The notes under the pieces: generated by a model | What the model was told of the DNA's origin: nothing | Database searches by the model: none | The model's input: the letters and a program-made list of their open reading frames with translations, nothing else | Part shown: piece by piece, positions 3,100 to 46,156 of the stretch | Layout of the letters: each line of letters starts with the position of its first letter | How positions within the stretch are numbered: position 1 is the stretch's first letter | Virus record (IMG/VR): IMGVR_UViG_3300010412_000010 | Coordinates: 14,463-78,462 of that record | From: a virus | Lineage: Duplodnaviria > Heunggongvirae > Uroviricota > Caudoviricetes | Length of the DNA stretch: 64,000 nucleotides | Strand: one strand, 5' to 3' | Position numbers and translations under genes: made by a program

Positions 3100-3818
3100 T
3101 GGCACGAACCAAAAATATTTTTATTGACCAAGGCGCTTCATTCGAAGAGTCTTATATTGCCTATGATAAACTCGACCAAGTAATCGACTTGACTGACTAT
3201 AATATTCGTGCGCAAATGAAGAAAACCTTCATTGCATATCGCGCCATTGATTTTGTAATAGAAGTTGTCGATGCTGTCAATGGACATTTCAAAATAAAGA
3301 TGCTGCCAGAAACATCCGATGTGCTTCGTGGTGGCAGATATCTGTATGATATCGAGCTTGAGCACGGCGTAACCGGCGATGTCATTCGTGTTTACGAAGG
3401 TCTTGCTGTACTCAATCCACAAATCACCGGCGCAAATCCTTTTGCAACGGTTGATGGATTGAATCTACTAGACACGGGGACGCTACACTCTCATGATAAT
3501 TTGGACAGCCTGAATTCCGTATTTGCCAAACCTTGGACGGCTGTTTCTAGCGATTATGCGATGGAAAACGGTGACCGGATTTTTGCGGATACAAGTGCTG
3601 GTATCATCGAACTAACCCTTCCGGCATCACCAGAAATTGGACACACAGTAGAAATTGTTGATATGAAGGGAACATTCGCAACAAACAAGGTAATTTTGAA
3701 AGGCGGTGCGGAAAACATTTCCGGTCAACCACTAGATGTTGATGTTGATGACTCAAACATTAATTTTAGAGCCGTGTATACGGGCGATGTTGCTATCGGC
3801 TGGAAACTATTGTTCTAA
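3099..3818 (+). CDS. hypothetical structural protein
   Basis: 239-aa ORF translationally coupled to its neighbours. Confidence 0.4.
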   Translation: MARTKNIFIDQGASFEESYIAYDKLDQVIDLTDYNIRAQMKKTFIAYRAIDFVIEVVDAVNGHFKIKMLPETSDVLRGGRYLYDIELEHGVTGDVIRVYEGLAVLNPQITGANPFATVDGLNLLDTGTLHSHDNLDSLNSVFAKPWTAVSSDYAMENGDRIFADTSAGIIELTLPASPEIGHTVEIVDMKGTFATNKVILKGGAENISGQPLDVDVDDSNINFRAVYTGDVAIGWKLLF

Positions 3819-3831
3819 TTGGTGAATACAC

Positions 3832-6800
3832 ATGCCTAGCATAAAAGATTTTATTCCAGATATCATGCGGGACGACCAGCGAGCGCTGGAAGTTCCTTAT
3901 GATGGTGGTGCGAGTGGCATTCCTGCTAGCAATGTACAGTCTGCCATTGACAGTTTGGATTCTCGCGTCGACAGTGCTGAGGGTGTATCACATACCCACA
4001 CCAACAAGGCTATCCTTGATGTAATTACGGCTGCTTTCACCACAACAGAAAAAACAAAACTGGCCGGAATCGAATCTGGCGCTACCGCCGACCAAAACGC
4101 AAGTGAGGTTCCATATAACAATACCACATCTGGGTTGGCCGCTACACAAGTTCAGGCAGCTATTGATGAGGTAGAAGATAGAGTTGGTGTGATAGATAGT
4201 ACCATCACATCCCAATCGTCTGCTATTTCCATCTTGCAGGCTGATGTGATTTCTCACGAATCCAGACTAGATACACACGACATTTCAATTGGCTTGCACA
4301 CATCGCAAATTACCAATCTACAAGTCGCCTCTCATACCCATTCCAACAAAGCCATTCTTGATGGTATAACCAGTGTTGGTTCTGGACAAATTATTACCGC
4401 AACCGAAAGAAGTGGTCTGCATACTCATTCCAACAAAGCCATTCTTGATGGTATAACCAGTGTTGGTTCTGGTGCGATTATTACGGTTGCGGAAAGAAAT
4501 AAACTCGCTGCTATTTCTGGAATAAACACCGGAAACCAAACTGCCACACAGGTTCCGTACAGCAATATTACATCTGGATTGGCTGCAACAAATGTTCAGG
4601 CTGCGATTGATGAAATCGACACAACACTTGATACTTTGTCGTCATCGTCGCATGGCCACACAAACAAACCAGTTCTTGATGGCATAACCAATGCCGGTTC
4701 TGGTGCGATTATTACGGTTGCCGAACGAAGTAAGCTTGCTGGTGTAGAAGTTGGCGCTACCGCCGACCAAAATGCAAGCGAGGTTCCTTACAGCAATGTT
4801 GGTTCCGGATTGGTTGCTGTCGATGTCCAAGCCGCCATTGATGAAGTGGAAGGTCGTGTTGATGCCTTGGAATCATCGTCGCATGACCACTCCAACAAAG
4901 TCATTCTTGATGGTATAACCAGTGTTGGTTCTGGTGCAATTATTACGGTTGCGGAAAGAAATCAACTATCTTCGGCAGAACAGACCACAAACAAAGGTGT
5001 TGTTGGTGGGTATGCTTCTCTTGATGGTTCCGGCACTGTTCCGCTTTCTCAGCTTCCCGATGCGGTAAAAAACGGTGATTATAAAGGTGCGTGGAACGCT
5101 TCAACCAATACACCAATACTAGCCGATGGTATTGGTTCTAATGGTGATAACTACAAGGTGTCTGTTGGTGGTACACAGGACTTTGGTTCTGGGCCAATTA
5201 CATTTGCTGCTGGACAGTCTGTTGTGTACAACGGAACATCGTCCTCGTGGGAAAAAATCGGAACGGATGATGCCGTGAATTCAGTAAACGGACAAATCGG
5301 CGCAGTTGTTCTTGATTCGGATGATATTGATGATTCGGCATCCACGACAAATAAATGGATGACACCAACAGAAAAAACAAAACTGGCTGGCATCGAAGAT
5401 GGTGCGGAAGTAAATCCAACCGCGTCCGAAATAAAGACTCTCTATGAGTCAAACGCGAACACAAATGAATTCACGGATTCCGAAAAAACAAAACTTGCTG
5501 GTATAGAAGTTGGTGCTACCGCCGACCAAAATGCAAGTGAGGTTCCTTACAGCAACACCACATCTGGACTAACTGCTACACAAGTACAAGCTGCTATTGA
5601 TGAAGTGGATGGTCGTGTTGATGCACTAGAAACATCATCACATACCCATTCCAACAAGGCCATTCTTGATGGTATAACCAGTGTTGGTTCTGGTGCGATT
5701 ATTACGGCTGCGGAAAGAAGTAAGTTGGCCGGTATCGAATCTGGTGCTACTGCTGACCAAAATGCAAGCGAAGTGCCGTATGACAATGTTGGTTCTGGTT
5801 TGGTGGCGACACAAGTACAAGCTGCTATTGATGAAGTGGATGGTCGTGTTGATGCACTAGAAGCATCATCACACACCCACTCTAACAAAGCAATTCTTGA
5901 TGGTATAACCAGTGTTGGTTCTGGACAAATTATTACCGCAACCGAGCGGTCTAATTTACACACCCACTCTAACAAAGCAATTCTTGATGGTATAACCAGT
6001 GTTGGTTCTGGTGCGATTATTACGGCTGCGGAAAGAAGTGGGTTGCACACCCATTCCAACAAAGCAGTTCTTGATGGTATAACCAGTGTTGGTTCTGGTG
6101 CGATTATTACGGTTGCGGAAAGAAGCGGTCTGCATACTCATGGCAACAAGCCGGTTCTCGATTTAATTACGGACGCTGGGTCTGGCGTGATAATGTCATC
6201 GACAGAAAGAACGAAACTTGGTGGTATTTCTGCTGGTGCAACCGTTGGTGCAACATGGGATGTCAATATTTCCGGACAACCGTCAATCATATCGCAAGCA
6301 GAGGCAGAGGGCGGCGCTGCAACAACTCAACGAATTTGGACTGCGCTGAGAATAGCACAGGCCATTGCCGCATTGACAAGAATCCGAAGTCATGTGTCTA
6401 GGGCAACCGGAAGTATTCCGATTACCACAACAACTGTTATTTCTTATACCGGAGTGGAAATCCCAGACACATCCATCATAACAGTAAGCGGAAGTAATGA
6501 ATTTACTTGTGTGAAATCTGGGAGATATGAATTACATGCGGTATCCAACGGTCAAATGGATTACGCAATTTTTTCGCTAGAAGGCTCACTCGAAACATAC
6601 ATTGAGCGCAGTGATGGTGGTGCATATAGCAGGATAAATAGGTCTACTGGGACTGGTTCTGCCAATAGGGGACAATCCGCATCCGGAGGAAGAAACATTG
6701 GTATGCACTCTTATGTCATCGAAACAGACTGTGTTGCGGCAACCACAAAATTTAGGGTTGTTTGTGACAGACCGTCCGGCAACAACGGAACTTTGTTTGG

Positions 6801-13008: not shown

Positions 13009-15027
13009 ATGGCCTTCTATCTAAGTCCAATTATTGATGTAAATGAGATTGACCTTACCCTTGGGGTTCCGGCAGTTTCAACTTCTATCGGTGCGTTTGC
13101 TGGTCCTTTCGTATGGGGTCCGGTTGAAGAGATTGTAACTATCGCATCCGAAACCGAACTTGCTGCAAGATTCGGCAAGCCAGATAACGACACTGCGGCA
13201 TCATGGTTCAGTGCTGCCAACTTTTTGGCATATTCAAATAACCTGAAAACTGTCCGTGTTGTTGGTTCTCTTGCCGTAAACGCTGGTTCTTCGGGAACAG
13301 GCGTTCTTATCAAAAACGAAACTGATTATGAAAATAAGATTGACGGAATCGTTCTTGATGGCTCAGAATTTTTTGCAAAATATCCTGGTTCTCTTGGAAA
13401 TGGTTTGCAAGTGTATGCCCAAAACTCAGCAAACTATTCTTCATGGACATTCGCTGATGCGTTTGATTCTGCCCCAGCAGCAAACGAAATTCATTTGGTA
13501 GTTGTTGACGGTGACGGTACATGGACTGGTATCGCCGGTAATATTTTGGAAAAATTTGCATTCTTGTCAACTGTTGCTGGTACCCAGTCTTCGGATGGTT
13601 CGAATGTGTACTACAAAGATGTCATCACCCAGCAATCCAGATACATTTGGGTTGGTGGTGGAGCAGACGAAACCGCGTTCACCAATGCAAGCCAAACCAA
13701 TTCAATTTCTTCGGAATCAACTGTTGTTGCTGCACTAGACCCAAGTGTTGTTGCACTGACAACTGACATTTCTGGAACAGATTTGTTGTATGTTACTTTC
13801 GATTCTGGTTCTGGCCCAGTTGAGTTGGTGGAAGGCGTTGACTACACCAAGACAATTAACGCGTCTCCAACACCAGACGAATTGGACTTCACCCTACTGA
13901 ATGGTGGTGCTACCTTCCCAGTTGGCGGAACAATTGCCGTTGTTGTTACCCCAGCAACCATTACGACTACCGCACCTTTCGATGCGGACGATACCTTGGT
14001 TGTTACCATTGGTACTTCTACCCTGGTGGAAGGCACCGAATATAGCAGAACAGCACCAAACATGATTAATATGTTGTTGCCGTTGGAAGTCGCTGGTACG
14101 CTGACAATCAAAAACGAATTCTTTGCAGAATTGTCTGGCGGGGTTGACGATAACATTGGTGTTGATATCACCGATGGATATGAAATGTTCAGAAATGCCG
14201 AAGAGGTTGACATTTCGTTAGTTGTTACAGGCCCAGCCACCCAAGTACAAGCAGAATGGGTTCTGGACAATATCGGCGAATACAGAAAAGACTGTGTGGT
14301 ATTCATTTCCCCAGAAAAATCTGATGTCGTAAACAATCCAGGTGACGAAGTTGCTGATACCGTTGCGTTCAGAAACCAGTTCAATAGCTCTTCATATGGC
14401 TTCATGGACAATAACTGGAAAAAACAATACGACCGATACAACGATACCTTCCGTTGGGTTCCATTGAACGGTGATATTGCTGGCTTGGCCGCATATACCG
14501 ACAATGTTTCCGACCCTTGGTATTCGATTGCTGGTTTTAATCGCGGTCTGGTTAAGAATGTTGTCAAGTTGGCATACAGCCCGAACCAAACTCAGCGCGA
14601 TGAACTGTACAAGAATGGCGTGAATCCAGTGGTTAATTTCTCTGGTCAAGGCACTGTGTTGTATGGCGACAAAACCATGTTGTCTCGCCCAAGCGCGTTC
14701 GACAGAATCAATGTTCGTCGACTGTTTATTGTGTTGGAAAAGGCGATTGCTACAGCAGCAAAATATCAGTTGTTTGAATTCAACGACGAGTTTACTCGCG
14801 CACAGTTCAAGAACATGGTTGAGCCGTTCTTGCGTGATGTTCAAGGCCGTCGTGGTATCTATGACTTCCGAGTTGTTGCCGATACAACAAACAACACACC
14901 GGAAGTGATTGACAGAAACGAGTTTGTTGGTGATATCTATATCAAACCAGCTAGGTCAATTAATTTCATTCGACTGAACTTCATTGCGGTTCGCACTGGC
15001 GTGTCGTTCGAAGAAGTTGGCGCATAA
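13009..15027 (+). CDS. 18: tail sheath protein gp18
   Basis: C-terminal ~200 aa closely match T4 gp18 (KQYDRYNDTFRWVPLNGDIAGL...FDRINVRRLF...RVVADTTNNTPEVIDRNEFVGDIYIKPARSINFIRLNF). Confidence 0.9.
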   Translation: MAFYLSPIIDVNEIDLTLGVPAVSTSIGAFAGPFVWGPVEEIVTIASETELAARFGKPDNDTAASWFSAANFLAYSNNLKTVRVVGSLAVNAGSSGTGVLIKNETDYENKIDGIVLDGSEFFAKYPGSLGNGLQVYAQNSANYSSWTFADAFDSAPAANEIHLVVVDGDGTWTGIAGNILEKFAFLSTVAGTQSSDGSNVYYKDVITQQSRYIWVGGGADETAFTNASQTNSISSESTVVAALDPSVVALTTDISGTDLLYVTFDSGSGPVELVEGVDYTKTINASPTPDELDFTLLNGGATFPVGGTIAVVVTPATITTTAPFDADDTLVVTIGTSTLVEGTEYSRTAPNMINMLLPLEVAGTLTIKNEFFAELSGGVDDNIGVDITDGYEMFRNAEEVDISLVVTGPATQVQAEWVLDNIGEYRKDCVVFISPEKSDVVNNPGDEVADTVAFRNQFNSSSYGFMDNNWKKQYDRYNDTFRWVPLNGDIAGLAAYTDNVSDPWYSIAGFNRGLVKNVVKLAYSPNQTQRDELYKNGVNPVVNFSGQGTVLYGDKTMLSRPSAFDRINVRRLFIVLEKAIATAAKYQLFEFNDEFTRAQFKNMVEPFLRDVQGRRGIYDFRVVADTTNNTPEVIDRNEFVGDIYIKPARSINFIRLNFIAVRTGVSFEEVGA

Positions 15028-36543: not shown

Positions 36544-36888
36544 GTGTACGAATATAGGGCAACATTAGACAGAGTAGTCGATGGTGACACAATAGATGTC
36601 ATCATGGATTTGGGATTTGGTGTTTATAGCAAACAACGAATTCGTCTTGCTGTTATTGATTGTCCAGAAATGAATTCGTCCGATGAATCACAACGAGCAC
36701 TTGCAAAACAAGCAAAAGAGTTTGTTGAGCAATTGATTGCCAAGCACGGAACTGAGCTTGTTATCCGTACCGCAAAGTCGGATAAATATGGTCGATATAT
36801 CGGCTATGTTCGGTTTTACGATGACCACCAGATATCCATTCACGAAGAATTGTTGAAGTCTGGGTTGGCTGCTGTATATTCCAAGTAA
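36544..36888 (+). CDS. staphylococcal-nuclease (SNase/thermonuclease)-like nuclease
   Basis: VVDGDTIDV...RIRLAVIDCPE...DKYGRYIGYV...ELLKSGLA pattern of an SNase fold. Confidence 0.6.
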   Translation: MYEYRATLDRVVDGDTIDVIMDLGFGVYSKQRIRLAVIDCPEMNSSDESQRALAKQAKEFVEQLIAKHGTELVIRTAKSDKYGRYIGYVRFYDDHQISIHEELLKSGLAAVYSK

Positions 36889-37507: not shown

Positions 37508-37592
37508 ATGGAGCGTAACCGAGTGGTCAAAGGTATCAGACTTTTAATCTGACGCGAAATGCTTCGGGGGTTCGAATCCCCCCGCTCCAACC
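37508..37592 (+). tRNA. type-II (long-variable-arm) tRNA with apparent anticodon TTT; identity uncertain (Leu-like body, A73)
   Basis: Acceptor tggagcg/cgctcca; 3-bp D stem; anticodon arm tcaga-cTTTTaa-tctga; 14-nt variable arm; T arm ggggg-ttcgaat-ccccc; CCA. Confidence 0.5.
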
Positions 37593-37611
37593 ACTTTATC
37601 AAGAGGATGTT

Positions 37612-38172
37612 ATGTCTCAGGCGTCTATTGCATATTGGATTGACCCCAAGGGTAAGCTTGTATCTGGTGGGTTGAAACGACACATCGAATTGGTTGCGGC
37701 TTCGCCAACCAAATTCTTAATTTCTAAAAAAGAAGTCGAATCCATCTATAACAAACACAATGAAGTTGTTGGAACAGAAGGTAAGGCGCGGGAAGAAATT
37801 ATCAAAAAAATCCTTAGCGTTGGTTTTATTCGCCTACGCATTTATCCAAACGATTATTGGAGTGTGACTGTCGATACATTCAATCGTCGAGCAAAGGTTG
37901 CGTTACAGAAATGGGCACAACAGGAAGGCGGACTGATGCCTGTGAAAATTTCACAATCAGGAAAGCCATCCGCAAAAACGATTGAATATACCGTAGATGA
38001 ACTTGCAAATGGCGACCATTTGTTTGAGCAAGCAGACTATGAGCTTGCAAAAACATTTACCATTGAGGTTGTCGATATTGAACATTTTGGTTTTGATGTT
38101 GATGATAACGCGGTGATTTTCAATCGAAACCTAGTGATTGAAACTTTGAAGAAATGTGGGCGATTAGTTTAA
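37612..38172 (+). CDS. hypothetical protein
   Basis: 186-aa ORF; its last 15 nt overlap the acceptor stem of the following tRNA-like gene. Confidence 0.4.
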   Translation: MSQASIAYWIDPKGKLVSGGLKRHIELVAASPTKFLISKKEVESIYNKHNEVVGTEGKAREEIIKKILSVGFIRLRIYPNDYWSVTVDTFNRRAKVALQKWAQQEGGLMPVKISQSGKPSAKTIEYTVDELANGDHLFEQADYELAKTFTIEVVDIEHFGFDVDDNAVIFNRNLVIETLKKCGRLV

Positions 38173-38252
38173 TTGGTAAAACACCAAGCTTATACCTTGG
38201 CATGGCACCAGATTAGTGCAAGTTGTCCGTTCGAATCGGACATCGCCCACCA
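38158..38252 (+). tRNA. atypical 95-nt tRNA, anticodon TAT (Ile-AUA?), ~24-nt variable arm
   Basis: Perfect acceptor gggcgat/atcgccc; D stem gttt/aaac; anticodon arm ccaag-ctTATac-cttgg; T arm gtccg-ttcgaat-cggac; CCA. Overlaps the CDS 3' end. Confidence 0.4.
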
Positions 38253-38269
38253 TAACACGGATTTATATT

Positions 38270-38779
38270 ATGCCCATGAAAGAAGTTGATTTTGATGTTG
38301 CAGAAATCAGAAAGGCGATTGAAGAAAGCACTGAAACCACTTCGATATATGTTGGTGCCGATTCAAAAAAATGTAGGGACAATGTTGTTTATGCGACAGT
38401 TGTTGTTTTGCATTTTGACTCCAAGCATGGTGGAAAGATTTTCAAGGACATTAAAATCGAACCGTATTATGGAAGCGTTCGGCAGAAATTGATGTTCGAA
38501 GTATACAAGGCTGCTGATATCGCATATAAAATCATGGATGTTGTTGGTGCTCGCAGGTTTCAGATTCATTTGGATTTGAACCCAAACAAAGACCAGTTAA
38601 GCAACATTGTTGTGAAAGAGGCGACTGGTTATATTCTGGGTACTGTTGGGTTTGCGCCAACATTGAAACCGGACGCGTTTGCTGCATCCACTGCTGCTGA
38701 TGAATTTGCAGTAAAGAATGCTAAATTTGGTAGGAAGTTTTTCAGGAAAAGGCGAAATAAAAAAAATCATGGTGGTTGA
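38270..38779 (+). CDS. hypothetical protein
   Basis: Start trimmed to ATG 38270 to clear the tRNA; basic C-terminus. Confidence 0.4.
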   Translation: MPMKEVDFDVAEIRKAIEESTETTSIYVGADSKKCRDNVVYATVVVLHFDSKHGGKIFKDIKIEPYYGSVRQKLMFEVYKAADIAYKIMDVVGARRFQIHLDLNPNKDQLSNIVVKEATGYILGTVGFAPTLKPDAFAASTAADEFAVKNAKFGRKFFRKRRNKKNHGG

Positions 38780-38785
38780 TATTAT

Positions 38786-40420
38786 ATGAGCAAAAAACGA
38801 CCAAATCATTGCGGAAAGCCGATGCATTTGCACGATACAAACAAACATGGTAGACAACGATACCGTTGTGCTGTTTGTAAAACGAGCATGATTGAGAACC
38901 GAAGCGAAGAGCATACTCATGGTTATGATGTTGATTTGGCCAATGACAATGCCAAGAAGATTCAGTTGCTTGTTAAGAAAAACAAGCACAATAAGTTCGT
39001 CATTACTTCCGCGATAAACAATACCGAGGCTTGGCAGGATTATCTGCTATCCCTACAGAAATATTGCGACCACAACAATGCAACTCTTATTATTGTTCCT
39101 GTTCCATACAAAAATGTAACCGCATTCTCCAGCAACAAAGAAAGAAAAAAGTGGTGGGATGATTCCATCGTTCCTTTCTTCGTTGACGATGACATCTATC
39201 TTGGTGGTAATATCATGCTCATGGCCGGTACCAGAATTGGTGCTACTATGGCCAATCCGTTGTCGGGGAAGGCCGCTATTGGTGGACACAGGTGGACTAT
39301 TTTTGCGCATCCGCAGTTGGCGTTGGAGCCGGTTGCTACTCCTATAAACACCATGCCAAAAAAGATGTATACGACTGGCGCGGTTACTGTTAAGAATTAT
39401 TCGCGAACAAACGAGGGCAAAAAGGCCGAGTTTCATCATGTGATGGGTGCAATTGTTGTTGAGACAATTGGTGATTCACATTCGTTTGTTCGTCAATTGA
39501 ATGCTGGTGATGATGGTAGTTTTTATGATTTGGAATATCACTACACCCCAAGAGGTGCCAAGAAATACGACCATATTGAAGTGTTGGCGCCTGGAGACGA
39601 ACATGCAAAGTTCGTGTTGGATTCTGTAAAGCGAGCCACATATTCAAATAGAGATAGTATCGTTAATACGCTAAAACCAAGAATGATTGTTCGAAATGAT
39701 ATTTTGGATGGGTATGCCGGAAGCCACCATCACGCGAAAGACCCGATGTTGCAATTCAAAAAGTTTCACAATGATGATGATAACTATCGGAAAGAACTTG
39801 ACCAGTGCGTCGCGTATGTGAATGAGACGACGCCGAATTATGCGGTTTCTGTTTTTGTTGCATCCAACCACCACGACCATTTAACAAAATGGCTTAATAC
39901 TGTCGACCCAAATAAAGACCACAAAAATGCACTATTAATATCGGAATTGAATGTTGCTGTAAGACAGGCGATTCTGGAAGATAGAGACTACGACCCATTC
40001 AGGTTGTATTTGGAACCAAGGCTGACATGCAAAAATAAGTTTTTGAGTCGGAATGAGCGGTTTGTTGTTGGTGAGGTTGATTACTCTCAACACGGCGATG
40101 TTGGGGTAAATGGCGCAAAAGGTAACGCGCGCGGTTTGGCAAACACATGCGCTAAGATGGTTATTGGGCATTCGCATGGCGCGAGAATCGTGAAAGGTGT
40201 GTATCAGACAGGAACCAGTACCGGAAGCTTGGAATATGAAAAGGGGTTGGGTGACCATTCCAACACACATTGCATCCAATACCCAAATGGCAAGCGATGT
40301 TTGATTGATATTATTGATGGGCAATGGCGACACACCAAACGAACCGAGACACAAAGAAAGAATAAAATCAAAAAAAAGACGATTGACAGGCGAAAAAAAG
40401 TCGCTACAATACATAAATAA
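38786..40420 (+). CDS. N-terminal zinc-ribbon protein with C-terminal calcineurin-like metallophosphoesterase-like motifs
   Basis: CGKPMHLH...RYRCAVCKT zinc ribbon; downstream APGDEH, ASNHHDH, IGHSHG motifs resemble MPE motifs I-V. Confidence 0.45.
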   Translation: MSKKRPNHCGKPMHLHDTNKHGRQRYRCAVCKTSMIENRSEEHTHGYDVDLANDNAKKIQLLVKKNKHNKFVITSAINNTEAWQDYLLSLQKYCDHNNATLIIVPVPYKNVTAFSSNKERKKWWDDSIVPFFVDDDIYLGGNIMLMAGTRIGATMANPLSGKAAIGGHRWTIFAHPQLALEPVATPINTMPKKMYTTGAVTVKNYSRTNEGKKAEFHHVMGAIVVETIGDSHSFVRQLNAGDDGSFYDLEYHYTPRGAKKYDHIEVLAPGDEHAKFVLDSVKRATYSNRDSIVNTLKPRMIVRNDILDGYAGSHHHAKDPMLQFKKFHNDDDNYRKELDQCVAYVNETTPNYAVSVFVASNHHDHLTKWLNTVDPNKDHKNALLISELNVAVRQAILEDRDYDPFRLYLEPRLTCKNKFLSRNERFVVGEVDYSQHGDVGVNGAKGNARGLANTCAKMVIGHSHGARIVKGVYQTGTSTGSLEYEKGLGDHSNTHCIQYPNGKRCLIDIIDGQWRHTKRTETQRKNKIKKKTIDRRKKVATIHK

Positions 40421-40431
40421 TTTTTGTTTGT

Positions 40432-40507
40432 GGGTAGGTAGCTCAGTAGGTAGAGCACTTGTTTGAAGCACAAGGTGTCGACAGTTCAATTCTGTCCCTG
40501 CCCACCA
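40432..40507 (+). tRNA. tRNA-Phe (GAA)
   Basis: Canonical D arm; anticodon arm cttgt-ttGAAgc-acaag; T arm gacag-ttcaatt-ctgtc; CCA. Confidence 0.8.
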
Positions 40508-40512
40508 ATTAT

Positions 40513-40589
40513 GTCGCTGTAGCTCAGTTGAATAGAGCAATTGCCTTCTAAGCAATCGGTCGTAGGTTTGAGTCCTACCAGCGACGCCA
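40513..40589 (+). tRNA. tRNA-Arg (TCT)
   Basis: Near-duplicate of the Arg(TCG) gene body; anticodon loop ctTCTaa; CCA. Confidence 0.8.
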
Positions 40590-40596
40590 TATTAAT

Positions 40597-40673
40597 GGGC
40601 AGGTGATGGAATTGGCATACATGTTGCGCTTAGAACGCAAATTTTAAGGGTTCGAGTCCCTTCTTGCCCACCA
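40597..40673 (+). tRNA. class-I tRNA with anticodon TAG (Leu codon CUA), irregular D arm
   Basis: Acceptor gggcagg/cttgccc; anticodon arm ttgcg-ctTAGaa-cgcaa; T arm aaggg-ttcgagt-ccctt; CCA; D stem poorly paired. Confidence 0.5.
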
Positions 40674-40690
40674 TTTATATCATCTATGTC

Positions 40691-40768
40691 GTCTAGTTGA
40701 TGGGAATTGGTATACCTCCTTTCCTCAAAAGTAAGGGCTTCTTGGTTCGAGTCCAAGACTAGACACCA
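40691..40768 (+). tRNA. tRNA-like gene with aberrant 11-nt anticodon loop (possible pseudo-tRNA)
   Basis: Perfect acceptor gtctagt/actagac and T arm cttgg-ttcgagt-ccaag with CCA, but anticodon stem tcctt/aaggg encloses tcctcaaaagt. Confidence 0.35.
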
Positions 40769-40772
40769 TTTT

Positions 40773-40850
40773 GGGCTGGTAGAGAATTGGAATATCGGTC
40801 AGACTTAAAATTTGGCGTCATTGTGGGTTCGATGCCCACCCAGCCTACCA
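40773..40850 (+). tRNA. class-I tRNA with anticodon TAA (Leu codon UUA), 7-nt variable loop
   Basis: Acceptor gggctgg/ccagcct; anticodon arm tcaga-ctTAAaa-tttgg (two G-U pairs); T arm gtggg-ttcgatg-cccac; CCA. Confidence 0.5.
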
Positions 40851-40880
40851 TTGTTGTTGTACTATTATTTGGAGATTTTT

Positions 40881-41282
40881 ATGAATGACAAACATGCTGA
40901 ACATGTAAATGTTGATGAAAAAGAGGCTGATGAACTTTCATATGAAGGCGGGCGAAGAAGCGCTCAATTTGTTGGCGGATTCAGACAGGCGATAAAAACT
41001 CAAACATATTACATGGGCGATTTGAATGCCCAAGCAAAATTGCTGGTTTCTCAGTTGGATGAATACAACATGCTTGCTTCATATCACGGTGCTCCAACTG
41101 TTGATGTGCGAAAGGCGTTGGTTTTTTTGGAAAATCGGGTTGCGCGGTTTTATGGATTGAAAAATAAATACAACGGTAACGGAAGTCTTCGTGAGCGAGT
41201 TGAGAGTGTGTTGTTGAAAAGTATTGACGAAGAAATCGAAAGAACACAGCAGGAAATGGCCGACATTGAGTCGGATGTTTGA
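40881..41282 (+). CDS. hypothetical protein
   Basis: ATG 40881 preceded by GGAG; the upstream in-frame extension would overlap a tRNA. Confidence 0.4.
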   Translation: MNDKHAEHVNVDEKEADELSYEGGRRSAQFVGGFRQAIKTQTYYMGDLNAQAKLLVSQLDEYNMLASYHGAPTVDVRKALVFLENRVARFYGLKNKYNGNGSLRERVESVLLKSIDEEIERTQQEMADIESDV

Positions 41283-41290
41283 AATAATTT

Positions 41291-41375
41291 GGGGGTTCGT
41301 CGGAGTGGGAGAGCCGAGTCGGACTGTAAATTCGATGTGAAAGCTGAGTAGGTTCGAATCCTACAGCCCCCACCA
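41291..41375 (+). tRNA. tRNA-Tyr (GTA)
   Basis: Type II, 85 nt; anticodon arm tcgga-ctGTAaa-ttcga; T arm gtagg-ttcgaat-cctac; CCA. Confidence 0.8.
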
Positions 41376-41390
41376 AAAAAGGTATATAGC

Positions 41391-41636
41391 ATGAACGAGT
41401 CGTTGATTGTTGACTTGGAAAAGGCGGTTAGGGTTGTTCATTCGTGCGATACGGAAGAACAATGCATGGTTGCTGCAAGATGGATTAGTAGATTCATTGA
41501 CAAATGCAAATTGCTCAATCTTGATTATAATGACAGGACATATGTTGATTTTTTTGTTTATTCTTTGCGAGACCAGTTGTCCGATAGAATCACGACATTT
41601 CGGATTAAAGCCGGACAAACAAATTTCTCCGAATAG
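41391..41636 (+). CDS. hypothetical protein
   Basis: 81-aa ORF between tRNAs. Confidence 0.35.
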   Translation: MNESLIVDLEKAVRVVHSCDTEEQCMVAARWISRFIDKCKLLNLDYNDRTYVDFFVYSLRDQLSDRITTFRIKAGQTNFSE

Positions 41637-41724
41637 GAAGCGTGGTAGAGTGGTTAATACAATGGATTGCTAATCCATGAACCTGTATGGGTTCCGACGG
41701 TTCGAATCCGTCCGCTTCCGCCAC
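41637..41724 (+). tRNA. tRNA-Ser (GCT)
   Basis: Type II, 88 nt; anticodon arm atgga-ttGCTaa-tccat; T arm cgacg-gttcgaat-ccgtc; G73; CCA. Confidence 0.8.
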
Positions 41725-41739
41725 ATAAATACAAATATG

Positions 41740-41813
41740 CGGGCTAGCCCAAGGTGGGTCACCGGCCTTCCAAGCCGTGTAGGGTGGGTTTCGATTACCC
41801 CAGTCCGCTCCAG
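41740..41813 (+). tRNA. tRNA-Gly (TCC)
   Basis: 74 nt; acceptor gcgggct/agtccgc resembles E. coli Gly2; anticodon loop ctTCCaa; short D arm; CCA. Confidence 0.65.
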
Positions 41814-41818
41814 TTTTG

Positions 41819-41894
41819 CCCGTGTAGCTCAGTTGTTAGAGCATCCCATTGGTATTGGGAAGGTCGTAGGTTAGACTCCTATCATGGGCACCAG
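41819..41894 (+). tRNA. tRNA-Thr (GGT), unusual T-loop (ttagact)
   Basis: Canonical D arm tagctcagttgttagagca; anticodon arm tccca-ttGGTat-tggga; CCA. Confidence 0.65.
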
Positions 41895-41899
41895 TTATG

Positions 41900-41976
41900 C
41901 GGGTATATCTCAGTTGGCTAGAGCGATTGCTTGCCAAGCAATAGGTCGTGAGTTCGAGTCTCACTACCCGCTCCAA
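41900..41976 (+). tRNA. tRNA-Gly (GCC)
   Basis: Anticodon arm attgc-ttGCCaa-gcaat; T arm gtgag-ttcgagt-ctcac; CCA. Confidence 0.8.
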
Positions 41977-41977
41977 A

Positions 41978-42811
41978 TCACCGATACATGATTGTAGTTT
42001 TCGCCTTATTGAATTTACCAGCACCACGACGAAGGTCTTTGATATTTTTATTCTTGTTTCTGTTTTTTGATGCGTTTGCTAAGTTAAAAATCTTCTTGCT
42101 GTATTCCAAGTCTCGTTTTTTGATGTCCGCGTCATAGTCTTTCAGTGAACGATATTTCGTGTAGATTTTGTGTGCTTCTTCTTTCCATGCCCATAGTTTT
42201 TTTGTCATCACCTGTACTTCTGCGATGATATCACCCACAACAATTTTGAAATGATGTGAGCCACGATAGCCATATTCTGGGTCTGCTTTTTCGTCTTTGT
42301 ATTCATATGATTGAACAACCGCGCGTTTTTTTAGACGCTTTACCACATCCAGCACATCGTGTTTTTCTGGAACAAGAATGGCACCACGCAACACATCGTG
42401 AATTTGTTTTGGGTCTTTTCCGCGATTAACCGCTTTGTCAATAAACGAATCGAGTGATTTGAAATCGACGAGAATTTTCGTGTTGTTTGGTGAAACTGCT
42501 TTCAATAGCCGCGAATATGTTTTTTCGGCTTCTAGTGCCTTTTCATGCGCTTGTAACCATGCGGATTCCGCAGACGAACGCCTTTCCTCTTCGGTGTCGC
42601 CACTAATTCCTTGCCATGGCTGATATCCCGCTAATCTGGCTGGGTCTGTTGATGTGCGCTGTGCTGCACCAGAAACTTCGTCCAGTTCATATTGTTCCAC
42701 GACATGTTCCACGGAGTCTAGCCCGACGATAAAGTCCAATTCCTCGGTCAAATCGAACATATCGGTCAATATTTTCTTATTAATATCAATTACTTGCGAT
42801 AATGATTTCAT
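41978..42811 (-). CDS. RelA/SpoT-homologue small alarmone synthetase (SAS / toxSAS-like nucleotidyltransferase)
   Basis: Synthetase motifs IHDVLRGAILV and GYRGSHHFKIVVGDIIAEVQVMTKKLWAWKEEAHKIY (compare GYRSLH...EVQIRT...W); start trimmed to ATG 42811. One of only two minus-strand genes. Confidence 0.7.
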   Translation of the reverse strand: MKSLSQVIDINKKILTDMFDLTEELDFIVGLDSVEHVVEQYELDEVSGAAQRTSTDPARLAGYQPWQGISGDTEEERRSSAESAWLQAHEKALEAEKTYSRLLKAVSPNNTKILVDFKSLDSFIDKAVNRGKDPKQIHDVLRGAILVPEKHDVLDVVKRLKKRAVVQSYEYKDEKADPEYGYRGSHHFKIVVGDIIAEVQVMTKKLWAWKEEAHKIYTKYRSLKDYDADIKKRDLEYSKKIFNLANASKNRNKNKNIKDLRRGAGKFNKAKTTIMYR

Positions 42812-42845
42812 TTTATTGTCTCGAATAAATACCAACGGTCTATTT

Positions 42846-42853
42846 TATTTATA
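42846..42853 (-). promoter_or_regulatory. T4-type late promoter motif TATAAATA on the minus strand, upstream of the SAS gene
   Basis: Reverse complement of tatttata at 42846-42853, about 35 nt upstream of the SAS ATG. Confidence 0.35.
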
Positions 42854-42855
42854 GG

Positions 42856-42884
42856 TTGACTTTATTAGAACTATTCTGTATATT
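42856..42884 (+). promoter_or_regulatory. sigma70-like promoter (TTGACT-17-TATATT) for the alarmone hydrolase gene
   Basis: Near-consensus -35 and -10 elements with a 17-bp spacer, about 25 nt upstream of the RBS GGAG and ATG 42909. Confidence 0.55.
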
Positions 42885-42908
42885 TATTCGTGGTTGTTGG
42901 AGAAAAAG

Positions 42909-43391
42909 ATGAATAAGTTGATTGGTTCAAATCTTGTGTTCGATGAGGCGATGTATCTTGCTGCCATAGCGCATAACGGAAGTGTTGATTTGGGTGGTGC
43001 GCCGTACATTCTTCACCCGATTCGCGTCGCGGCCAGTTTGTTGGTCGTTTGGCCGTATGATTACGAACTGGCCGCAATCGGGTTGTTGCATGATGTTGTT
43101 GAAGACACCAATATGACCTTTGAGGATTTGGAAAAAATTGGGTTTTCTCCCCGTGTTGTCGATGCTCTTCGTGCGTTGACCCACAAAAAAGGTGTTCCGT
43201 ATGATGCCTACATTGACGACCTGATTGCTACCAAGAACTGGTCTGCGATTGCGGTAAAACTGGCTGATTTGAAAGATAATGCCAATTTGAGCCGTCTTGG
43301 GAATAATGTTGGTGCCGCTGATATCAAGCGTACTGAGAAATATATTCGTGCGATTGCGAAAATCGAAGCATTGGATATTGTCGATATGTAA
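42909..43391 (+). CDS. HD-domain (p)ppGpp hydrolase (small alarmone hydrolase, SpoT/Mesh1-like)
   Basis: YILHPIRVAASLL...AAIGLLHDVVEDT...FSPRVVDALRALT matches the SpoT hydrolase HD signature (HP..VA.IL...AALLHDVIEDT). Confidence 0.8.
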   Translation: MNKLIGSNLVFDEAMYLAAIAHNGSVDLGGAPYILHPIRVAASLLVVWPYDYELAAIGLLHDVVEDTNMTFEDLEKIGFSPRVVDALRALTHKKGVPYDAYIDDLIATKNWSAIAVKLADLKDNANLSRLGNNVGAADIKRTEKYIRAIAKIEALDIVDM

Positions 43392-43421
43392 AAAAAAATC
43401 ATATTTGATGAAAAAAAACCA

Positions 43422-43450
43422 TTGACAATCGTATAAATAGCACTTAGAAT
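43422..43450 (+). promoter_or_regulatory. strong sigma70-like promoter (TTGACA-17-TAGAAT); a late motif TATAAATA is embedded in the spacer (43432-43439)
   Basis: Consensus -35 and near-consensus -10; no CDS follows for about 0.9 kb. Confidence 0.55.
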
Positions 43451-43457
43451 GTGCGAA

Positions 43458-44357
43458 TGTTTTTGGGGCATAGCCCAGATAACCAATCGTAAGGTTGGGA
43501 AAGGTGTGAAGTCAACATAACACCACCTTCGCAAGAAGGCCAATCTATGCAAGCCGAGGAAGTAGTACCTAGTGTGCCATGCATACTAGGAACGGATGAA
43601 ACAAGAGGTAAAAGTCAGTGCAATAATCAAAGACTGGCCAGCAAAGAATGGGGACATTTGATGCTACCTGTATCCAACTTGTGAACCGTATTTCCGAAGG
43701 GTAGGGTGGATAGTGAGAGTTTTAGCGGACAATTGCACCATCCAGTTTACGAGGTTGCTTTGTCATATCGACAAAGAATCTTGAAAAACGGTATGAGTAT
43801 TCTTAGCGGAAGAAAATACAGGGGGCGCGTTGTATTTTGTGGTTCAAAAGACCATGAAGCAACCGGAAGCGCGCGTCCTAGTTGATACGATATAGCCGAA
43901 TGGTACGGCATCAGCCTTCTAAGCTGACGATTGGTGGTTCGATTCCATCTATTGTTTACAAAAGCAAAGACGCTTCCGGTGTCAGATGAAAATGACTTAA
44001 GCCCGTGCGCGCAAGCGAACGCGGGAAGTCCAAGGCTCGCAAGGCTGCGGATTTTTAAGGTGTAGTTGCACGGAACCGAAGCACGGTTTGTAGCCCGCAA
44101 GGCTGACGGTAAACGAAACTTTGAGAAGTCTGGCACGACAAGAGAACCGCCACTCTTCAAAAAAGGCAGTCATGGAGAAATAGATATTTGGGCGAAAGCT
44201 GGGTATCTGGATAAGACTTTAACACTGGCAGCAACCAGTTGGTACGGAGTCGAAAGTTTCTTCAAGTGAGGGTGTAATCTCAGCCCAAACCAAATATTCG
44301 CATGGTGATTGGAAAACTGGATTACTGAATAGTACCGACAGTCACCAGCCGAATATT
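43458..44357 (+). ncRNA. promoter-driven structured non-coding region (candidate stable RNA(s); RNase P RNA-like motifs in 43981-44357)
   Basis: No plausible + strand ORF; multiple GNRA-type hairpins; contains a tRNA-like element. Motifs gggaagtccaaggctcgc, gacggtaaacg, cacgacaagagaaccgcc, agcccaaaccaaata and acagtcaccagccgaata resemble RNase P RNA conserved regions I, III, IV and V in the correct order. Confidence 0.3.
43886..43957 (+). tRNA. tRNA-like element (Arg TCT-type anticodon), no encoded CCA, 1:72 mismatch
   Basis: D arm gccg-aatggta-cggc; anticodon arm tcagc-ctTCTaa-gctga; T arm ggtgg-ttcgatt-ccatc; flanked by 10-bp inverted repeats accggaagcg (43862-71) and cgcttccggt (43971-80). 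Confidence 0.35.
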
Positions 44358-44358
44358 T

Positions 44359-44435
44359 GCCCTAGAAACTTTTAGTTGGATGAAGCAGTGCCTTGTAAGC
44401 ACTGGAAGCAGGTTCGATTCCTGACTGGGGCACCA
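44359..44435 (+). tRNA. tRNA-Thr (TGT)
   Basis: Acceptor gccctag/ctggggc; anticodon arm agtgc-ctTGTaa-gcact; T-loop ttcgatt; CCA. Confidence 0.7.
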
Positions 44436-44449
44436 ACTAAATAATATTG

Positions 44450-44528
44450 TGGTAGGTATATTTTAATTGGCGAAAAATCCGGAATGTGACTCCGGCCATT
44501 GTCGGTTCGAATCCGACTACCTACCCCA
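44450..44528 (+). tRNA. tRNA-His (GTG) with encoded G-1
   Basis: G-1 opposite C73; D arm tttt-aattggcg-aaaa; anticodon arm ccgga-atGTGac-tccgg; T arm gtcgg-ttcgaat-ccgac; CCA. Confidence 0.8.
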
Positions 44529-44534
44529 CAACTC

Positions 44535-44609
44535 CAGTCGGTAGCTCCAATGGTAGAGCGGCGGTCTCCAAAACCGCATGTTGTAGGTTCGAGTCCTACC
44601 CGGCTGGCC
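44535..44609 (+). tRNA. tRNA-Trp (CCA)
   Basis: Anticodon arm gcggt-ctCCAaa-accgc; T arm gtagg-ttcgagt-cctac; CCA. Confidence 0.8.
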
Positions 44610-44616
44610 AAATGAA

Positions 44617-44693
44617 TAGCCCCGTAGCTCAACTGGCTAGAGCATCGGCCTTTGAAGTCGTGTGTTATTGGTTCGAATCCAATCGGGGTTGCC
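44617..44693 (+). tRNA. tRNA-Gln (TTG)
   Basis: Canonical D arm; anticodon loop ctTTGaa (4-bp stem with a G-U pair); T arm attgg-ttcgaat-ccaat; CCA. Confidence 0.7.
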
Positions 44694-44698
44694 AGTTT

Positions 44699-44776
44699 TC
44701 GGGGTGTAGCACAGTCTGGCCAGTGCGCTTGCTTTGGGAGTAAGATGTCGGGAGTTCGAATCTCTCCACCCCGACC
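44699..44776 (+). tRNA. tRNA-Pro (TGG)
   Basis: Anticodon arm cttgc-ttTGGga-gtaag; T arm gggag-ttcgaat-ctctc; CCA. Confidence 0.8.
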
Positions 44777-44969
44777 AATTTGTTGTAACAGTAGTAATAG
44801 TATTGAGTGGAAATGAATGGTTTTTTCAGAACAGTCAAATACAAATCGTTGCGAACAATTGTCAGATATAACAATCTTGACAGCTATGCTCGTTCCGATT
44901 TGTATCATGTAATCGGAATATTTGTTGGTTCCGTTGCGTTGATTTGTCTTGCGTTTATGGTGTGATTTT

Positions 44970-45045
44970 GCGGGGTAGTTCAGTGGTCAGAATAGTTGGC
45001 TCATAACCAAAAGGCCGGTGGTTCGAATCCACCCTCCGCAACCAG
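44970..45045 (+). tRNA. tRNA with CAT anticodon (second Met, or Ile2 after lysidine modification)
   Basis: Acceptor tgcgggg/ctccgca; anticodon arm gttgg-ctCATaa-ccaaa; T arm ggtgg-ttcgaat-ccacc; CCA. Confidence 0.7.
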
Positions 45046-45092
45046 AATTGAAATGTTTGTCATGATTATGTTTAACTCATGAGGAAATTGAA

Positions 45093-45326
45093 ATGAAACA
45101 TCGTACCCTAGCAGAAATGCGAAATCTCGAAACCGAAACGAAGCGCGTCGAAGCTTATCTGAGCATTCGTAAGTGTGGTTTGACCAAACACGAAGCTGAA
45201 GACAAGTTGGAAGTGAACGACCTGAATTCTGCAATCCGCAACTTGAAGAAACAAGGCGTGAAGATTGTTGATGAGTGGGATGCCACTTCTGGTATTCGAA
45301 TGAAGCGTTATCGTATTGCTGCGTAA
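45093..45326 (+). CDS. small hypothetical protein (possible HTH/winged-helix)
   Basis: 77 aa, followed by a terminator. Confidence 0.35.
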   Translation: MKHRTLAEMRNLETETKRVEAYLSIRKCGLTKHEAEDKLEVNDLNSAIRNLKKQGVKIVDEWDATSGIRMKRYRIAA

Positions 45327-45347
45327 TCGCTGATTTTGGCACATGAA

Positions 45348-45379
45348 GCCCAGTTCAGTGATTTGGACTGGGCTTTTTT
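45348..45379 (+). terminator. rho-independent terminator
   Basis: Hairpin gcccagt...actgggc followed by a T-run. Confidence 0.7.
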
Positions 45380-45400
45380 GTTGATAAATAGTGATATGGG

Positions 45401-46156
45401 TTGGAGGTTCATATGAGAACATTGCGGGAAGTAAAAAATACACCACAAGAGTTGGCAGAAGAGTTTGGTGCTCTTTTGGAAGCGTCATTTTCTCGATTAT
45501 TTCAGCATTTCCAAGAGCGTCCGATTGGTATTATTACTGCATTCCGTCGTTGTAACACGCGGGAAAAAAACCGTGAGCGGAATCGGGTTCTTGCAAAAGA
45601 ATTGCGCGCTGCTGGGTATGGGTTTATCCGAGCGCATGGCTATTATCCGGAAACTGGCGATGATGGCGAAAAGAAAAAGCGCGAAGAGGTTTTTATTGTT
45701 GTTGGTGATGTTGAAGACGCGGATGGTTCCAAACTACAAAAAAAACTAACCCATCTTGGGTATAAATGGAACCAAGATTCTGTATTCATAAAGCCAGCCA
45801 ATAGCGACAATGCCAAGCTGGTTGGTACCCAAGACATTGACAGGGATTGTAAAGTTGGTGAGCCTGTGTGGCCAGGACGAAACAAGGTCGCTAGGCTTGG
45901 GAAATGGGAACCAAATAAAATCGGCCTGTTCTATTCCAAAATGACCGGCAGGACTTTCGTGTTTACTTTGTTGGATGATGGTGAGGTGGTTGAGGAATTG
46001 GATTTGACTGGTCGTGTATATTCCGATTCGTCCATGTTTGGTGCGTGGGCAAAACACCTTATTGAGAATTGCGGACATAAGGTATACACGGAAGAAGAAT
46101 ATGACGCAATTCTAGCCAAGGAAAGGGCGGAAAAGCAGAAACACCAGAGCGGTTAA
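45401..46156 (+). CDS. hypothetical protein
   Basis: 251-aa ORF, no family recognised. Confidence 0.4.
   Translation: MEVHMRTLREVKNTPQELAEEFGALLEASFSRLFQHFQERPIGIITAFRRCNTREKNRERNRVLAKELRAAGYGFIRAHGYYPETGDDGEKKKREEVFIVVGDVEDADGSKLQKKLTHLGYKWNQDSVFIKPANSDNAKLVGTQDIDRDCKVGEPVWPGRNKVARLGKWEPNKIGLFYSKMTGRTFVFTLLDDGEVVEELDLTGRVYSDSSMFGAWAKHLIENCGHKVYTEEEYDAILAKERAEKQKHQSG

Follow-up and report, generated by a model that had tools for sequence, protein, structure and literature searches.

Three short-variable-loop tRNA-Leu genes in a phage tRNA array belong to a known form of leucine tRNA

Three adjacent genes in the tRNA array of an uncultured phage are real tRNA-Leu genes of a short form which is frequent in the tRNA clusters of phages and was already known from T5 and BF23. 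They lie on the + strand at 40597–40673, 40691–40768 and 40773–40850 of the window (the whole 64,000 nt stretch of viral DNA that we analysed), and ARAGORN calls them at exactly the positions given in the initial annotation, which had described two class-I bodies with leucine anticodons on either side of a tRNA-like gene. We consider it very probable that the trio are functional leucine isoacceptors (UAG, CAA and UAA) of short type I form, and base this on the structures of the genes, their identity nucleotides, their homology to T5/BF23 tRNA-Leu1, and the conservation and covariation of the family as a whole. The long variable arm (>10 nt) is absent from all three genes, which have variable loops of 5, 5 and 7 nt.

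Structure and registration of the three genes

The first gene, tRNA-Leu(UAG) (77 nt, sub-class A of the short-variable-loop form; 40597–40673, + strand, ARAGORN), has its anticodon at 40631–40633 in the loop CUUAGAA, a 5 nt variable loop (AUUUU), A73 and an encoded CCA, with all seven acceptor pairs (one of them G·U) and all five T-stem pairs formed. Its D arm, U8 G9 AUG G AAUUGGCAU A CAU G, matches that of BF23/T5 tRNA-Leu1, and the gene scores 59.7 bits with the generic Rfam tRNA model (RF00005, gathering score 29 bits) and 67.8 bits with R1, the covariance model described below. The third gene, tRNA-Leu(UAA) (78 nt; 40773–40850, + strand, ARAGORN), is also of the short-variable-loop form and is the most deviant of the trio. 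Its anticodon is at 40806–40808 in the loop CUUAAAA, the variable loop is of 7 nt (CGUCAUU), and it has A73 and CCA. The acceptor stem is complete (7/7, including G1·U72), as is the T stem (5/5), with an unusual T loop (UUCGAUG), and the D stem has only two Watson–Crick pairs plus a G·A. The anticodon stem contains two G·U pairs and only three Watson–Crick pairs, a count found in 10 of 265 members of the family, and the 7 nt variable loop is found in five of them; the scores are 35.4 bits with Rfam and 54.6 bits with R1. The earlier view of these outer genes as class-I in length with leucine anticodons TAG and TAA is therefore correct (77–78 nt, variable loops of 5 and 7 nt).

The middle gene is called by ARAGORN as tRNA-Leu(CAA), a 78 nt tRNA of sub-class B of the short-variable-loop form (40691–40768, + strand), with the anticodon at 40726–40728 in the loop CUCAAAA (with U33 and A37), a 5 nt variable loop (GGCUU), A73 and CCA. 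Its acceptor and T arms are perfect, as had been noted earlier (7/7 and 5/5 pairs), and the D arm consists of A10–U25, one bulged nucleotide, two G–C pairs and a G·A. The 11 nt anticodon loop originally ascribed to this gene proved to be a mis-registration, for both ARAGORN and the covariance model shift the stem by one position and leave a 7 nt loop, and we dropped the tcctt/aaggg stem with its 11 nt loop in favour of that register. The anticodon stem (C-CUUUC/GUAAG-G) then has six pairs, including 26–44, with a single U·U mismatch (40722/40732). What had been taken for a tRNA-like oddity is thus a standard isotype, tRNA-Leu(CAA), called under a different registration. The generic Rfam model returned no match to the gene even at E ≤ 10; with R1 it scored 87.7 bits, aligned end to end in the CAA register, and was the top match of the whole window.

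The model R1 was made from an alignment (A2) of 20 sub-class B genes which is gap-free and drawn from other contigs only, with no window gene among them; a MAFFT alignment of mixed sub-classes (A1) wrongly assigned the additional D-arm nucleotide of the sub-class B genes to the acceptor stem and was not used for the model. Sub-class B genes (78 nt) have the D arm UGA-N-GGG AAUUGG YAU A CCU, with A10–U25, a bulge, two G–C pairs and a G·A, and their 26–44 pair covaries, which extends the anticodon stem to 6 bp. Across the 20 genes 98.8% of the cells pair and both sides change in 18 of the 21 pairs, with a covariation score of 0.92 compared with 0.19 for shuffled alignments and 0.12–0.17 when the partners were slid. 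The identical D arm is found in other contigs with five anticodons (UAA, GAG, UAG, CAG and CAA), and the CAA gene is a regular member of this conserved sub-class, not an aberrant tRNA-like element. A metagenome scan for sub-class B CAA genes found one unrelated soil tRNA array only.

The CAA gene, the UAA gene, or both, could still be weak or impaired, and an unlikely reading of the trio is that one or both of them are decaying or poorly functional and that the UAG gene alone is fully competent. The U·U of the CAA gene (30–40) is found in three of 258 family members and goes with the missing Rfam match, and the UAA gene combines a reduced D stem, two G·U pairs, a 7 nt variable loop and an unusual T loop with a low Rfam score. 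We also found no close phage relative that would show these oddities to be conserved or compensated: a megablast search of 38000–46000 against cultured phages returned short tRNA-Arg matches only, a search of viral contigs seeded with the adjacent A1-like protein found no relative, and pf16, the closest cultured phage as judged by its capsid, lacks tRNA genes next to its A1-like gene. Against this reading, the CAA and UAA genes keep 7 bp acceptor and 5 bp T stems, U33, A37, A73, CCA and every leucine elbow nucleotide, and the CAA gene is the best match of the window to the family model with one non-standard pair. At that pair the related tRNA-Leu(CAG) of another locus (L132) has U·G, which places the CAA gene one substitution from a wobble pair. 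Working tRNAs often tolerate single mismatches and weak D stems. Once the genes are registered there is no aberrant loop, and the features that might have pointed to decoys or pseudogenes come down to the U·U mismatch of the CAA gene and the weak D stem of the UAA gene.

The reading of the trio as three leucine isoacceptors is also supported by the way in which the genes score together. Covariance-model scoring, which had been proposed as a check, favours all three genes when R1 is used (87.7, 67.8 and 54.6 bits for the CAA, UAG and UAA genes, with 37.5 bits for the next-best tRNA of the window), and only the UAG and UAA genes when the generic Rfam model is used (59.7 and 35.4 bits). The suggestion of a diverging paralogous family stands in so far as the genes are related as a group and fails as regards recent divergence, as their mutual identity is 59–63% compared with 76–82% to outside relatives. 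The same short UAG, CAA and UAA trio recurs in 19 other fetched loci, 16 of which have no long tRNA-Leu in the fetched stretch, and together with the closer outside relatives this shows the set to be old and recurrent and not a group of local diverging paralogues. Single-sequence MFE folding did not recover the cloverleaf for the UAG and CAA genes (z of –1.0 to –1.4), a result that we judge to be uninformative since non-recovery is common for unmodified tRNA sequences.

The D arm and leucine identity elements

The AATTGG D-loop motif reported earlier is common to all three genes, and the D region in which it lies, at first regarded as irregular, is built like that of E. coli tRNA-Leu(CAG) and contains the identity elements for LeuRS. 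We used the E. coli tRNA as a reference after confirming that it is annotated as tRNA-Leu and occurs at 100% identity in all 5426 E. coli genomes. Segment 8–26 reads UGGCGGAAUUGGUAGACGCG in this reference and UGAUGGAAUUGGCAUACAUG in the window UAG gene, and the two have in common three D-stem pairs, an unpaired G13·A22, and a D loop of A14 A15 U16 U17 G18 G19 N20 A20a N21. The three-pair D stem with G·A at 13·22 is exact in the UAG gene and is interrupted by one bulge in the CAA gene, and each of the trio has A73, A14, A15, G18, G19, A20a and U48. The same arrangement extends to the wider family: in 180 short tRNA-Leu with a 20 nt D segment covariation is seen at the three D-stem pairs and 132 have G·A at 13·22, with A14 in 97%, A15 in 99%, G18 and G19 in 98–99% and A20a in 96%, and 43 long tRNA-Leu from the same loci share the D-arm arrangement of the short form. 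We therefore read the D region of the trio as the hallmark bacterial tRNA-Leu D arm with its LeuRS identity set.

In E. coli, leucine identity depends on A73, A14, A15–U48, G18G19 and A20a, and the long variable arm is not required by LeuRS, as an arm-less minimal tRNA-Leu is still charged (reviewed in PMC9976931). The 87 nt E. coli tRNA-Leu(CAG) is a type II tRNA which is like the trio in its D arm, elbow nucleotides, A73 and anticodon-independent identity, and differs in having a variable arm of 15 nt compared with 5–7 nt. Animal mitochondrial tRNA-Leu also combine a short variable loop with identity in A73 and A14 (PMC9976931), as in the trio; they are of an unrelated lineage, with a reduced A/U-rich structure and a dedicated LeuRS, and the resemblance is in outcome only.

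These identity elements bear directly on whether the trio might be charged with another amino acid and so recode sense codons through a class-I body, which we regard as extremely improbable. It would explain the combination of a short variable loop with leucine anticodons, and this combination is the only feature in its favour. All three genes have every element of the leucine identity set and lack the G3·U70 alanine mark, and recoding to serine would conflict with the need of SerRS for G73 and a long variable arm. The anticodons of the trio are those of leucine, and most other synthetases read the anticodon (PMC9976931). Furthermore, the short form is seen with all six leucine anticodons of the family (UAG, UAA, CAA, GAG, CAG and AAG), and of the tRNAs with the leucine-type D-loop and short-length pattern 57 of 75 have a leucine anticodon (among the matches listed). 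Charging with leucine remains the reading that we follow below.

The short form across phages and in known systems

A blastn search found relatives of the UAG gene in 224 cultured-phage records at 77–83% identity, including BF23 tRNAL1, and these span T5-like Demerecviridae, Vequintavirinae (4MG, PVP-SE1) and Vibrio phages; most of the matches are annotated as tRNA-Leu, with one record labelled 'tRNA-Pseudo-TAG'. The BF23/T5 tRNA-Leu1 (AJ604530.1 tRNAL1) is like the UAG gene in its length (77 nt), UAG anticodon, A73, encoded CCA and type of T arm, and the two have an identical D arm (UGAUGGAAUUGGCAUACAU) and 77–83% identity over 70 nt. Both are found in phage tRNA arrays with homologues in the Demerecviridae and Vequintavirinae. 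They also agree in having a 5 nt variable loop (GUUUU in BF23 tRNA-Leu1 and AUUUU in the UAG gene), and differ by compensated changes in the acceptor and anticodon stems. T5 and BF23 are siphoviruses whereas the window phage is a distant T4-like myovirus, and the window adds short CAA and UAA isoacceptors, of which ARAGORN calls none beside the UAG one in the tRNA region of BF23.

The record AJ604530.1 annotates BF23 tRNAL1 as reading CUA and, when given a CUA anticodon, as an effective amber suppressor in E. coli. This implies that in E. coli the tRNA is charged independently of its anticodon and functions on the ribosome, with the note in the record naming no inserted amino acid. It is difficult to reconcile the suggestion that the genes are decoys or decaying copies with a homologue annotated as a working amber suppressor, and equally so with a family cloverleaf that is under strong purifying selection.

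The family set consists of 265 unique tRNA-Leu of ≤80 nt from all of the loci that we fetched, with A73 in 97%, U48 in 96% and a variable loop of 5 nt in 85%; it should be noted that most family statistics come from loci fetched by a pattern fixing GGAATTGG and GGTTCGA, that those columns are not independent evidence, and that the counts refer to pattern-selected loci among the matches listed and are not a census. In the 258 with at least six acceptor pairs, 98.8% of the pairs over 17 acceptor, anticodon and T-stem positions are standard, with mostly 4–6 pair types at a position. The D-loop/T-loop spacing pattern was found in at least 120 viral contigs, and a strict short tRNA-Leu(UAG) pattern gave at least 119 viral matches compared with 39 in 596 Gb of bacterial genomes. 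Most of these 39 are on MAG contigs with 10–25 tRNAs per 8 kb, which are phage-like arrays.

A less biased sample was provided by 119 viral loci fetched by a generic T-arm/CCA pattern which does not select for leucine features. Here 25 of 70 unique tRNA-Leu are short (≤80 nt), as are 2 of 23 unique tRNA-Tyr and none of 42 unique tRNA-Ser, and the 25 short leucine genes have A73 in 24 and U48 in 22. Roughly one third of the phage tRNA-Leu are therefore short in the sample examined, and short and long tRNA-Leu are mixed in 7 of 38 contigs. SerRS requires G73 and the long variable arm, and TyrRS is assumed to need the long arm as SerRS does. We suggest that leucine tRNAs can be short when serine tRNAs stay long because the arm is needed by SerRS and is dispensable for an E. 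coli-type LeuRS.

We found no published analysis of short-armed phage tRNA-Leu as a class, and the short form is absent from the reviews of tRNA identity and non-canonical tRNAs that we consulted, despite its share of about one third. Generic tRNA models can miss such genes, as in the case of the CAA gene with Rfam, and the 'tRNA-Pseudo-TAG' label given to a relative of the UAG gene is a similar case. For the window itself this is of little import and the genes should simply be annotated as tRNA-Leu(UAG), tRNA-Leu(CAA) and tRNA-Leu(UAA).

Two bacterial systems can be likened to the trio by description only. Phage-like, dense and horizontally acquired tRNA clusters in Mycobacterium mucogenicum/phocaicum carry a short-loop tRNA-Leu(TAG) (Behra et al. 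2019, PMC6582537), and resemble the window in having a short tRNA-Leu(UAG), a tRNA-Ile(TAT) and a GOLLD RNA; they are from another host phylum, and the short loop is given one sentence in that paper. The type I tRNA-Leu(CAA) of Streptomyces coelicolor has a 5 nt variable loop and coexists with one LeuRS (Fan et al. 2019, PMC6614811), and is chromosomal and not phage-borne. Its identity also involves an A14–U8 pair and the elbow, its critical 3'-end nucleotide is C74 rather than A73, and E. coli LeuRS is reported not to charge it (PMC6614811). By contrast, the short tRNA-Leu of BF23 is recorded as functioning in E. coli. The S. coelicolor result suggests that tolerance of the short loop is not universal and that host compatibility cannot be assumed.

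Setting in the tRNA array and proposed function

Judging from its proteins, the window is part of an uncultured and distantly T4-like myovirus. Pfam matches include the T4-type gp23 capsid, gp20 portal, gp18 sheath, gp17 terminase and UvsW proteins, as well as a gp46-like protein and a family B polymerase, and the nearest capsid is that of Pseudomonas phage pf16 (57% identity). ARAGORN finds 29 tRNA genes at 30.8–45 kb of the window covering all 20 amino acids, and a GOLLD RNA is found by Rfam at 43822–44286. A RelA/SpoT-like enzyme and an HD hydrolase are also located within the array. The tRNA-Ser (90 and 88 nt) and tRNA-Tyr (85 nt) of the window keep the usual long form, and ARAGORN found no long-armed tRNA-Leu in the window.

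The trio lies at the end of a cluster of five tRNA genes (Phe–Arg–Leu–Leu–Leu) with spacers of 4–17 nt, in which tRNA-Phe(GAA) (40432–40507, + strand, ARAGORN; Rfam 67.9 bits) and tRNA-Arg(UCU) (40513–40589, + strand, ARAGORN; Rfam 68.6 bits) are 5–7 nt apart from their neighbours. Ending 22 nt upstream of the cluster is a sigma-70-like site (40383–40410, + strand) with TTGACA, a 16 nt spacer and TACAAT (11 of 12 consensus matches), and this match to the consensus makes it a candidate promoter. The spacing of the genes suggests that tRNA-Phe and tRNA-Arg are probably co-transcribed with the leucine trio.

We infer the transcription, processing, leucylation and decoding range of the trio as follows. 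The three genes would probably be transcribed with tRNA-Phe and tRNA-Arg from the sigma-70-like site, after which RNase P and 3' nucleases of the host would release them from the precursor. The host LeuRS, which does not read the anticodon, would then recognise A73 and the elbow (A14, A15–U48, G18G19, A20a and the three-pair D stem), and loss of the arm would be tolerated because the long arm is not an identity element for an E. coli-type LeuRS. The UAA and CAA tRNAs would read UUA and UUG, and the UAG tRNA would read CUA and CUG and possibly all CUN codons. Leucine codons in the window are used in the proportions UUG 38%, CUU 20%, CUG 19%, CUA 10%, UUA 8% and CUC 4%, and the trio would supply every one of them, including UUG which is the commonest.

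A further possibility is that the short form escapes a nuclease or shut-off activity directed at the long-armed tRNA-Leu of the host, and that the trio are nuclease-proof replacements or decoys. Phage tRNAs have been proposed to evade tRNA-targeting defences (PMC10264068), the trio covers all leucine codons, and the RelA/SpoT-like enzyme and HD hydrolase lie within the array. The recurrence of the same short trio in 19 other loci, 16 of them with no long tRNA-Leu in the fetched stretch, and the enrichment of the short tRNA-Leu(UAG) in viruses (at least 119 matches compared with 39 in the bacterial genomes) are also consistent with escape. However, no nuclease or other factor recognising the variable arm of tRNA-Leu was identified in the window analysis or in the literature consulted, and many phage arrays mix short and long tRNA-Leu, as seen in the 7 of 38 contigs above. 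The different needs of LeuRS and SerRS are a simpler explanation which already predicts short leucine and long serine tRNAs, and genes serving purely as decoys would have no need to keep their anticodon loops, A73 and CCA intact under such strong covariation. We consequently think it rather improbable that the trio serves for escape.

In its most specific form this argument would hold that loss of the arm has been selected and not merely tolerated, with a complete arm-less leucine set (UAG, CAA and UAA) sustaining decoding when the long-armed tRNA-Leu of the host are disabled; the disabling agent might be either a defence toxin of the host or a shut-off enzyme of the phage, and would use the variable arm or type II shape. 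We give this little credence. If it were true, the type I tRNA-Leu of phages would form an escape class defined by structure, akin to the anticodon-loop escape mutations of other phage tRNAs, and it would follow that an E. coli-type LeuRS charges type I tRNA-Leu in vivo, which is not what the Streptomyces study would lead one to expect. We continue to prefer the simpler view of the trio as functional leucine isoacceptors whose shortened arm is tolerated by LeuRS.

We also note a feature of another tRNA in the array. The tRNA(UAU) gene at 38158–38252 is 95 nt long and has a 24 nt insert between the anticodon arm and the T arm which forms the hairpin GCAC-CAGAUUA-GUGC, and we found no description of such a GAU-loop hairpin in tRNA(UAU) in the literature. 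When compared as a set of 37 unique long tRNA(UAU) (that of the window and 36 from fetched arrays), GAU is present in all 37 inserts and AGAU in 34, usually in the hairpin loop, and the insert stems covary. The loop is of 7 nt in 26 of the 37 (CAGAUUA in 13, CAGAUAA in nine, CCGAUUA in two, GCGCCAG in one, and a shifted loop in one). AGAU is rare in other long arms (6 of 213 tRNA-Ser, 2 of 99 tRNA-Leu and 1 of 76 tRNA-Tyr), where the loops are mostly of 4 nt. The insert loop matches the anticodon loop of the window tRNA-Ile(GAU), CUGAUAA, at 5–6 of 7 positions, and as IleRS identity is strongly anticodon-dependent, this likeness suggests that the hairpin may serve this tRNA, with its true anticodon of UAU, as a surrogate GAU identity element.

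A tRNA(UAU) with an additional hairpin

The tRNA array of the window includes a tRNA(UAU) gene of 95 nt (38158–38252, + strand), the 'Ile' label of which derives from the anticodon. It has a standard 7/5 cloverleaf with A73 and CCA, and a 24-nt insert that separates the T arm from the anticodon arm and folds into the hairpin GCAC-CAGAUUA-GUGC. We compared this gene with 36 others from the phage-like tRNA loci collected from public sequence collections (including L018, L062, L138, L140, L151, L170 and L200), giving a set of 37 unique long tRNA(UAU) sequences, and found covariation in the stems of their insert hairpins. All 37 inserts contain GAU, usually positioned in the hairpin loop, and 34 of them contain AGAU, while the loop is 7 nt long in 26/37 (CAGAUUA in 13 cases and CAGAUAA in nine). 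AGAU is almost absent from the long arms of other tRNAs, where it occurs in 6/213 Ser, 2/99 Leu and 1/76 Tyr sequences. As the insert loop resembles the anticodon loop of tRNA-Ile(GAU), CUGAUAA, with U33 replaced by A, it is possible on these sequence comparisons that the hairpin acts as a surrogate identity element for IleRS. A search of cultured phages for the window tRNA(UAU) with its hairpin produced no match, and no published description of the hairpin was found in our literature search.

A second tRNA of unusual length is the tRNA-Lys(UUU) at 37509–37593 (+ strand; 85 nt), in which the variable region is 13 nt (CGCGAAAUGCUUC) compared to the usual 4–5 nt. Long forms were seen in 1/78 tRNA-Lys(UUU) and 7/81 tRNA-Asn sequences from the collected arrays, and an 84-nt tRNA-Lys and an 86-nt tRNA-Asn are annotated in the Vequintavirinae phage 4MG.

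Protein genes and GOLLD RNA within the array

Directly upstream of the tRNA cluster in this T4-like genome is a gene for a 544 aa relative of the phage T5 A1 or 'DNA transfer' protein (38786–40420, + strand), which shares 36–38% identity with proteins from Synechococcus, Xanthomonas and Stenotrophomonas phages and for which no Pfam match was obtained. Small genes also lie between the tRNAs on the + strand, and Pfam identifies their products as a staphylococcal-nuclease homologue (36544–36888; PF00565), an RNaseH-like protein (38216–38779; PF04308) and a member of the S-adenosylmethionine lyase family (45401–46156; PF23780).

A divergent gene pair within the array encodes a RelA/SpoT-like nucleotidyltransferase (41978–42835, - strand; PF04607, E = 7e-9) and an HD_4 domain protein (42894–43391, + strand; PF13328, E = 8e-7), and by these domain matches resembles a small alarmone synthetase and hydrolase pair. 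Some toxic members of the RelA/SpoT-like synthetase family are described as pyrophosphorylating the CCA ends of tRNAs (PMC11245113).

The array also contains a full-length GOLLD RNA (43822–44286, + strand), which scores 190.5 bits with the Rfam model RF02032 (cut-off 150). Of the two copies of tRNA-Arg(UCU) in the window, the first is located at 40513–40589 and the second (43885–43959) is embedded in the GOLLD RNA close to its 5' end.

Unusual RNAs in other phage-like arrays

Some of the collected arrays include tRNAs whose anticodon is CUA (amber) or UCA (opal), labelled Pyl or SeC by ARAGORN (L001 at 1810–1885, and L146 and L165 from MAG Phocaeicola contigs); recoded phages probably use these as suppressor tRNAs. 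In the curated record for the T5-like phage BF23 (AJ604530.1; L123), several RNAs that lie amid the tRNA genes are described as 'tRNA-like RNA with unknown functions' or 'stable RNA with unknown functions' and annotated as RNA1, RNA2, RNA3, RNAI, RNAIII, RNAIV, RNA 2H and RNAX, with coordinates for these RNAs including 3020–3380, 5701–5825 and 6619–6692. Within RNAX, ARAGORN called an extra tRNA with an ACU anticodon (14152–14225).
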